Positions 19,317-19,556 of a stretch of DNA of 23,972 nucleotides are shown one piece after another. The notes under the pieces are model-generated. The model saw only the letters and a list, made by a program, of their open reading frames with translations. It was not told the DNA's origin and searched no databases. The stretch lies in IMG/VR virus record IMGVR_UViG_2534681933_000011. One strand, 5' to 3'. How positions within the stretch are numbered: the stretch's first letter is position 1; each line of letters begins with the position of its first letter. The DNA comes from a virus. Taxonomy: Duplodnaviria; Heunggongvirae; Uroviricota; Caudoviricetes. The translations under genes and the position numbers were made by a program.

Positions 19317-19361
19317 AAATAAAAAAATCCCGCAGAGTTAGCGGAGCTGCGGGAGAGAACG

Positions 19362-19481
19362 ATGAAGATTAACGTTATGGAGTTATTTTTCAGGCATCAA
19401 AAAAGTAATGCAGCGTCATTATTGCGGCTACAGGCAATTGCCGGAAATGTGAAGAGTTTCAGAAATTTTATTCCGTCATGA
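19362..19481 (+). CDS. Hypothetical 39-codon ORF in an atypical I-J intergenic insert
   Basis: ATG...TGA frame MKINVMELFFRHQKSNAASLLRLQAIAGNVKSFRNFIPS with GGGAGA 5-10 bp upstream, and a terminator hairpin immediately after its stop. Too short for the ORF track; the call rests only on this sequence context. Confidence 0.25.
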   Translation: MKINVMELFFRHQKSNAASLLRLQAIAGNVKSFRNFIPS

Positions 19482-19482
19482 C

Positions 19483-19512
19483 ACAGGCACCCTCCGGGGT
19501 GCCTGTTGTTTT
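19483..19512 (+). terminator. Terminator-like hairpin immediately upstream of J
   Basis: ggcaccc-tccg-gggtgcc followed by a T-rich tract (tgttgttttct); J ribosome-binding site and GTG follow. Exact base count in this hairpin is uncertain by 1 nt. Confidence 0.4.
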
Positions 19513-19556
19513 CTGGCATAAACAGATTCAGACATCAGACAGGAGAGGGGGACAGA

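Follow-up and report, generated by a model that had tools for sequence, protein, structure and literature searches.

Two prophage-encoded small RNAs (sRNAs), described separately in enterohemorrhagic and enteropathogenic Escherichia coli (EHEC and EPEC), are the closest described counterparts of the element analysed here. EcOnc22 comes from prophage Sp15 (stx1) of strain Sakai, was detected at ~85 nt on Northern blots, was crosslinked to Hfq and was scored as 'Destabilised' in the absence of hfq; EcOnc23 (Sp14) and EcOnc24 (Sp11) were listed as its homologues (Tree et al. 2014; PMC4104026, Table S2). PasB comes from prophage PP6 of EPEC E2348/69, where it was annotated as an 83-nt RNA on the minus strand (NC_011601 1466343-1466261) and placed between E2348C_1436 and E2348C_1437 (Pearl Mizrahi et al. 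2021; PMC8550237, Table S6). The same study reported a base mean of 482-1082 for pasB vs. 5 and 15 for its two neighbors, I and J, a log2 fold change of -6.8 in an hfq mutant, and a higher PasB level in the non-activating growth condition. It also reported 37 RIL-seq partners; in the chimeras PasB almost always took the second position, the hallmark of an sRNA (PMC8550237). We found no statement that EcOnc22 and PasB are equivalent: the PasB note field is empty (PMC8550237), a 2026 preprint on PasB (Zhu et al.) is without EcOnc names, and a 2021 review gives the EcOnc22 target as 'unknown'.

Other prophage elements offer wider points of comparison. AgvB and AsxR (RF02702 and RF02703) are likewise short, Hfq-binding, noncoding cargo of EHEC lambdoid prophages, but they adjoin stx, are 51-60 nt long, and share a different conserved 3' region. 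HnrS (EcOnc10-12) is a 66-nt, multicopy, Hfq-associated sRNA from the late region of EHEC and EPEC prophages that represses hha (Poudyal et al. 2026; PMC13502914). Lambdoid morons (Juhala et al. 2000), e.g., sodC, are extra DNA between otherwise adjacent genes, have their own promoter and terminator, and are expressed from the prophage.

The stretch of DNA analysed (the window, 23,972 nt) covers head and tail genes and represents the late region of a mosaic, STEC-type lambdoid prophage. Gene I has its stop codon at 19314-19316 and J starts with a GTG at 19557, in agreement with the annotation of the identical sequence in VT1-Sakai; the ribosome-binding site GGAGAGGGGGA precedes the GTG (19542-19559 together with the start, plus strand). 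The I-J gap thus spans 19317-19556, or 240 nt. The first-pass annotation had described it as an atypical insert that holds two opposing terminator-like hairpins and a 39-codon open reading frame (ORF), at a junction where J follows I directly in lambda. The gap and its three features proved real, but the lambda comparison did not hold: in lambda (NC_001416) I and J are separated by 60 nt (15445-15504), which themselves contain a hairpin and a T-tract. Because lambda already has this 60-nt gap, the extra DNA in the window amounts to ~180 nt rather than 240. A terminator scan returned 4 sites in 18900-19900, vs. 1.0 ± 0.9 expected. We conclude that the gap very probably contains a noncoding 'moron', that is, an sRNA gene of ~180 nt inserted between I and J, opposite to the late operon, in a lambdoid prophage of the STEC/EPEC type. 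The element is already known as EcOnc22/PasB. Of the earlier proposal of "a small moron or a regulatory/small-RNA element", the inserted sRNA gene with its own terminator stands, and the 39-codon ORF does not.

Several neighboring features were recorded alongside the gap. The window has J as a single uninterrupted ORF (19557-23036), whereas a frameshift splits it in Sakai Sp15 (AP000400 / NC_002695.2 ECs_2943-2944) and in strain PV15-279 despite the identical upstream gap; the window hence derives from a prophage whose tail-tip gene is intact. Just 5' of the J ribosome-binding site, the heptamer TCAGACA occurs twice in tandem (19528-19541). One relative (L013) has four copies, indicating that repeat slippage changes how long the J leader is. 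The same late operon contains a second sRNA gene, a full-length match to isrC, an Hfq-binding sRNA family (Rfam RF01387; 4723-4845, plus strand; 150 bits, E = 5.5e-37), which lies directly 3' of a 553-aa ORF (2983-4644) that is probably the terminase large subunit.

Related loci were collected with the J N-terminus as a handle. We fetched 80 viral contigs and 36 genome contigs and cut out their I-J gaps; the ORF survey used 79 loci that represent 42 distinct gap sequences, and the sRNA alignment used 21 distinct variants. The 240 nt of the window are 100% identical to the gaps of Sakai Sp15 / VT1-Sakai and Stx2a_WGPS6, and 73-83% identical to those of ~140 other Stx and lambdoid phages. The gap sequence was present in 802 of 5,426 complete E. 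coli genomes (~15%), at a median of 3 places in each, the maximum being 9. Many J or lambda-type matches at L085, L087, and L089-L120 came from short contigs with low coverage that belong to unrelated taxa (Streptomyces, Bacillota MAGs, Bradyrhizobium, and others), and look like contamination of those assemblies with E. coli or lambda DNA.

Published probes and reads place EcOnc22 on this gap. The Northern probe for EcOnc22/23/24 starts with GGGAGAGAACGATGAAGATTAAC, and its first 23 nt match the plus strand of the window at 19351-19373; because the probe equals plus-strand sequence, the RNA lies on the minus strand. The EcOnc22, EcOnc23, and EcOnc24 parts of CLASH hybrid reads all begin with GCCUGAAAAAU / GCCTGAAAAATAACTCC, which corresponds to the minus strand from 19395 downwards, and the read sequences in the RNase E-CLASH table (Waters et al.) map to 19395-19363. 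Coordinates in Tree 2014 and Waters 2017 refer to an older Sakai record, and the published tables are not directly usable on NC_002695.2. The CLASH read sequences fixed the offset between the two records (+135 at 2.90 Mb and +142 at 1.27 Mb), and after conversion the Hfq-CRAC cluster runs from 19398 to 19338 in the window.

PasB maps to the same junction. E2348C_1436 and E2348C_1437 are I (ending at 1466255) and J (starting at 1466496), which again leaves a gap of 240 nt; the PasB Northern probe, AATCCCGCAGTGATCGCGGAGCT, is the plus-strand sequence of the left hairpin. When the E2348/69 gap was aligned with that of the window (85% mean column identity), the annotated ends of PasB fell on 19396 and 19321. 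From the gap identity, the probe, the CLASH reads, and the PasB alignment, we assign the RNA of the window to EcOnc22 itself and EcOnc22 to the PasB family. Compared with EcOnc22 in Sakai, the gap sequence, strand, and I-J position are the same, and only J differs, being split in Sp15. PasB has in common with the window the I-J gap, the antisense orientation, the terminator stem, the U7 tail, the core, and the upstream block. The RNA bodies are ~80% identical; the window variant is 7 nt shorter (including a 6-nt deletion near the 5' end), differs at 3 positions of the terminator loop, carries the core GUUAAUCUUCAU where PasB has AUUGAUCUUCAU, and has a weaker -35 and -10.

An Rfam search of the gap gave no match at the gathering score or at E values up to 10, and none was found in the related loci, including E2348/69; Rfam holds no family for EcOnc22/PasB. 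Other candidate identities were rejected. AgvB and AsxR occupy the PR' moron site, and no Rfam match to them was seen in the gap. HnrS belongs to another locus, between the lysis genes and terminase, and no copy of it is present in the window. The octamer UAAUCUUC is common to HnrS and the window RNA, and it raised hha as a possible common target, which we rejected for the window variant. On the hha ribosome-binding site HnrS pairs through a seed of 8 bp; the window RNA forms at most 6 contiguous Watson-Crick pairs with hha, none of them at the ribosome-binding site, and its duplex energy was not distinguished from shuffles (p = 0.12).

The sRNA gene occupies 19321-19396 on the minus strand, with its 5' end at ~19395/19396 and its 3' end at the U7 tail (19321). 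The mature RNA is ~75-76 nt in the window variant, and the primary transcript may start further upstream, at ~19410. The Rho-independent terminator (19321-19354, minus strand) consists of a stem formed by 19347-19354 and 19328-19335, an 11-nt loop, and the U7 tract at 19327-19321. On the plus strand, CCCGCAG (19329-19335) pairs with CTGCGGG (19347-19353), and because A7 (19321-19327) precedes this hairpin, it reads as an intrinsic terminator of the minus strand. The first-pass annotation had read it in this way, and both the stem and the A7 were indeed found there. Across the 21 distinct variants, 99.3% of the cells in the terminator stem were paired, while the loops differed in sequence and length. 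Covariation was confined to one divergent variant (L080), in which the stem is kept via two double changes. The minus-strand RNA that ends at this hairpin had a folding z of -2.9, and its predicted fold is an open 5' part followed by the terminator.

Directly 5' of the terminator lies a conserved single-stranded core, GUUAAUCUUCAU (19362-19373, minus strand), which we propose as the seed. Its AUCUU (19365-19369) is at least 90% conserved in the alignment of variants, and the putative seed of PasB was placed at the same spot by Zhu et al. (2026 preprint). In addition to the terminator stem and this core, the minus-strand alignment of 21 variants showed conservation of the U-tail, a U-run, the AATAAT/TATAAT hexamer, and a nearly invariant upstream block of 25 nt; the rest of the sRNA body was variable and contained indels.

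Two promoter models, A and B, are both compatible with the data. Model A uses AATAAT (19418-19423, minus strand) as a candidate -10 hexamer. Hexamer positions 2, 3, and 5 are invariant in the 21 variants, and many variants, including E2348/69, have TATAAT instead of AATAAT. A promoter scan of the sRNA strand of E2348/69 identified a strong candidate, TTCACA-16-TATAAT, with 11 of 12 matches. In the window the scan found none; the -35 of the window is poor, and the promoter is only weakly recognisable there. The start predicted by model A, ~19410, lies ~15 nt upstream of the observed 5' end, so that ~15 nt must be removed to reach that end. Model B uses a weak alternative -10, TACTTT (of the form TAnnnT; 19402-19407, minus strand), in which TA is invariant in the 21-variant alignment. 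Its predicted +1 would be G19395, where the CLASH reads begin and which lies no more than 1 nt from the annotated 5' end of PasB.

Upstream of both candidates is a CRP/FNR-like palindrome, TGTGAAGAGTTTCAGA (19448-19463), which sits inside the most conserved block of the gap (~19443-19470); this block may serve the sRNA promoter as an operator or UP region. The palindrome has the form TCTGA-N6-TCACA, with one core mismatch, and hardly varies among the 21 variants, in contrast to the -35 region. No other site in the 24-kb window matches TGTGA-N6-TCACA with one mismatch or none. Because such a match is expected by chance about once per window (0.79 expected), the weight of the palindrome comes from its position and its invariance. 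In CRP-dependent promoters the centre of the consensus site is expected around -41.5 (class II) or -61.5 (class I). The centre of the palindrome falls at -44.5 under model A and at -60.5 under model B, the latter close to the class I activator position. A variable and poor -35 would fit dependence on an activator, and the rise of PasB in the non-activating condition does not contradict CRP control, although it is no proof of it. We regard control of the sRNA by CRP as possible but doubtful.

The I-J gaps of the fetched loci fell into four classes: the lambda type of 60 nt; the window type of 237-263 nt, with 29 distinct sequences; a class of 344-346 nt, whose left 165 nt are as in the window and whose right part is another hairpin module; and a class of 851-854 nt, whose left ~100 nt are as in the window, the rest being taken up by a gene for Cu/Zn superoxide dismutase on the minus strand (PF00080, E = 3.9e-32). 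In the 344-346-nt class (e.g., L027, gap positions ~165-345), ~180 nt of unrelated sequence replace the hairpin module of the junction and include a strong two-way terminator hairpin (AAAACCCCGGTATC...GATACCGGGGTTTCTCTTT) with no Rfam match. Gaps of the sodC type were seen at L005 (~650-1500), L008, L039, L047, L050, L054, L060, L068, L072, L073, and L087. In these loci the sRNA body and terminator are retained and the promoter block is replaced, with the junction to sodC falling within a base or two of the model A start, ~15 nt upstream of the observed sRNA 5' end. Set against the lambdoid morons, the window element shows a gap of 240 nt where lambda has 60, a clear terminator, and a promoter that is clear in E2348/69 and weakly recognisable in the window; it differs from them in that its cargo is RNA, not protein, and is antisense to the late operon.

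The second hairpin of the gap, on the J side, has a different history. It is a terminator-like structure on the plus strand (19483-19513), 44 nt upstream of the J start, with a 10-bp stem and a 4-nt loop (stem-loop 19483-19506) followed by the T-tract TTGTTTTC. Its folding energy gave z = -5.8, and none of 200 shuffles folded as well. Among 10 variants, 98% of the cells were paired; a U-A pair replaces C-G at one position, and at two others the pair has become G-U, whose counterpart on the opposite strand would be A-C. Since G-U pairs form only in the plus-strand RNA, the hairpin acts in the late transcript. In the 60-nt gap of lambda the corresponding position carries AAACCGCCTGCGGGCGGTTTTGTC, with TTTTGTC after the hairpin, and the 345-nt gap class has its own, different hairpin and T-tract before J. 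The first-pass annotation was right that a plus-strand hairpin precedes J, but had counted it as part of the insert. With analogous hairpins in lambda and in the 345-nt class, we interpret it as a separate and older feature that belongs to the I-J junction and is no part of the sRNA insert; most likely it terminates polymerase lacking Q modification or stabilises an RNA end.

The evidence for expression comes from the papers on identical (Sakai) or homologous (E2348/69) sequence, and it points to a trans-acting, Hfq-dependent sRNA that lysogens produce at a time of almost no tail-gene expression. The sRNA gene would be transcribed leftwards from its own promoter region (~19400-19470), with the promoter relying on the conserved upstream block and its CRP-like site, and transcription would stop at the left hairpin and U7 tail to give an RNA of ~75-90 nt. 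As suggested by its anatomy, this RNA would act in trans by classical Hfq-dependent base pairing via the core GUUAAUCUUCAU. An EcOnc22 CLASH hybrid showed pairing via CCAUAACGUU and GCCUGA, with a dG of about -22, in a data set with few hybrids and weak statistics for this RNA.

The orientation of the gene also allows a role mainly in cis, in which the sRNA pairs with the I-J spacer of the late mRNA, or collides with late transcription, and thereby alters J (the tail tip), with related co-resident prophages as further possible objects of its action. Complementarity between the RNA and the I-J spacer is perfect, and in all 68 loci that have the promoter module the gene occupies this fixed position and runs antisense to the late operon. 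Several copies per genome are common, as given above, and EcOnc22, EcOnc23, and EcOnc24 have the same 5' part. However, the RNA ends ~160 nt upstream of the J ribosome-binding site, with the strong plus-strand hairpin in between. It is also expressed in lysogens, with the late genes silent, and many RNAs partner with it in trans on Hfq. We therefore consider a mainly cis-acting role improbable. A broader scheme, in which the CRP-like palindrome is a real activator site, the sRNA is switched on under carbon limitation (cAMP-CRP) and has a dual role, in trans on host mRNAs and as antisense to the I-J spacer in late transcripts of its own and of related co-resident prophages, and the I-J junction is a dedicated landing site for antisense cargo expressed in lysogens (sRNA or sodC), also seems unlikely.

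The gap might alternatively have no functional product, its hairpins serving only as transcription insulators and the RNA at the left hairpin being noise. Both hairpins are terminator-like, and such hairpins occur at the junction even without the insert. This account is very unlikely given that the RNA is abundant, discrete, Hfq-dependent, and was found independently in EHEC and EPEC, and that the promoter block and seed core are conserved across diverged variants.

The 39-codon ORF (19362-19481, plus strand) is present as the first-pass annotation described, with an ATG at 19362, a TGA at 19479-19481, and a GGAG 6 nt upstream, but we judge that it is not a gene. That annotation had named conservation with synonymous-biased variation in related prophages as a check on coding, and the ORF failed it. 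The ATG together with at least 35 codons was kept in 15 of the 79 related loci (5 of the 42 distinct gap sequences), and the frame was open for 39-41 codons in 5 of the 42 sequences. The ATG was changed to ACG or ACA in 32 of 79 loci, and in most of the others the ORF was truncated or frameshifted (22 codons in E2348/69; a frameshift in the common L009 type). Among variants with an open ORF, differences were near uniform over codon positions 1/2/3 (7/9/11), and codon changes were 16 nonsynonymous vs. 5 synonymous. The product had no Pfam match and no credible PHROG match, and the peptide was absent from the supplementary files of a Sakai small-gene study, in which sequences may not be listed. 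RefSeq and the majority of phage records carry no annotation in the I-J gap, and a single phage record places a 32-codon 'hypothetical protein' there. The ATGAAGATTAAC with which the ORF opens is the complement of the conserved sRNA core, and the ORF is a by-product of the strand complementary to the sRNA. That it encodes a small moron protein merely insulated by the hairpins, as its open frame, upstream GGAG, and the one 'hypothetical protein' record might suggest, is hardly credible in view of the start loss, the truncations, the absence of synonymous bias and family matches, and the validated transcript on the opposite strand.

With the gap read as an sRNA gene, the element between I and J should be labelled as such in annotations, and not as an ORF. 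The link between EcOnc22 and PasB merges the EHEC and EPEC data sets, and the sRNA family in this gap is more diverse than the bacterial-genome survey of the 2026 preprint (BLAST word size 28) would detect. Pairing by the sRNA would tie host and virulence mRNAs to carriage of the prophage, and the I-J junction itself may be viewed as a site for antisense cargo, whether sRNA or sodC.
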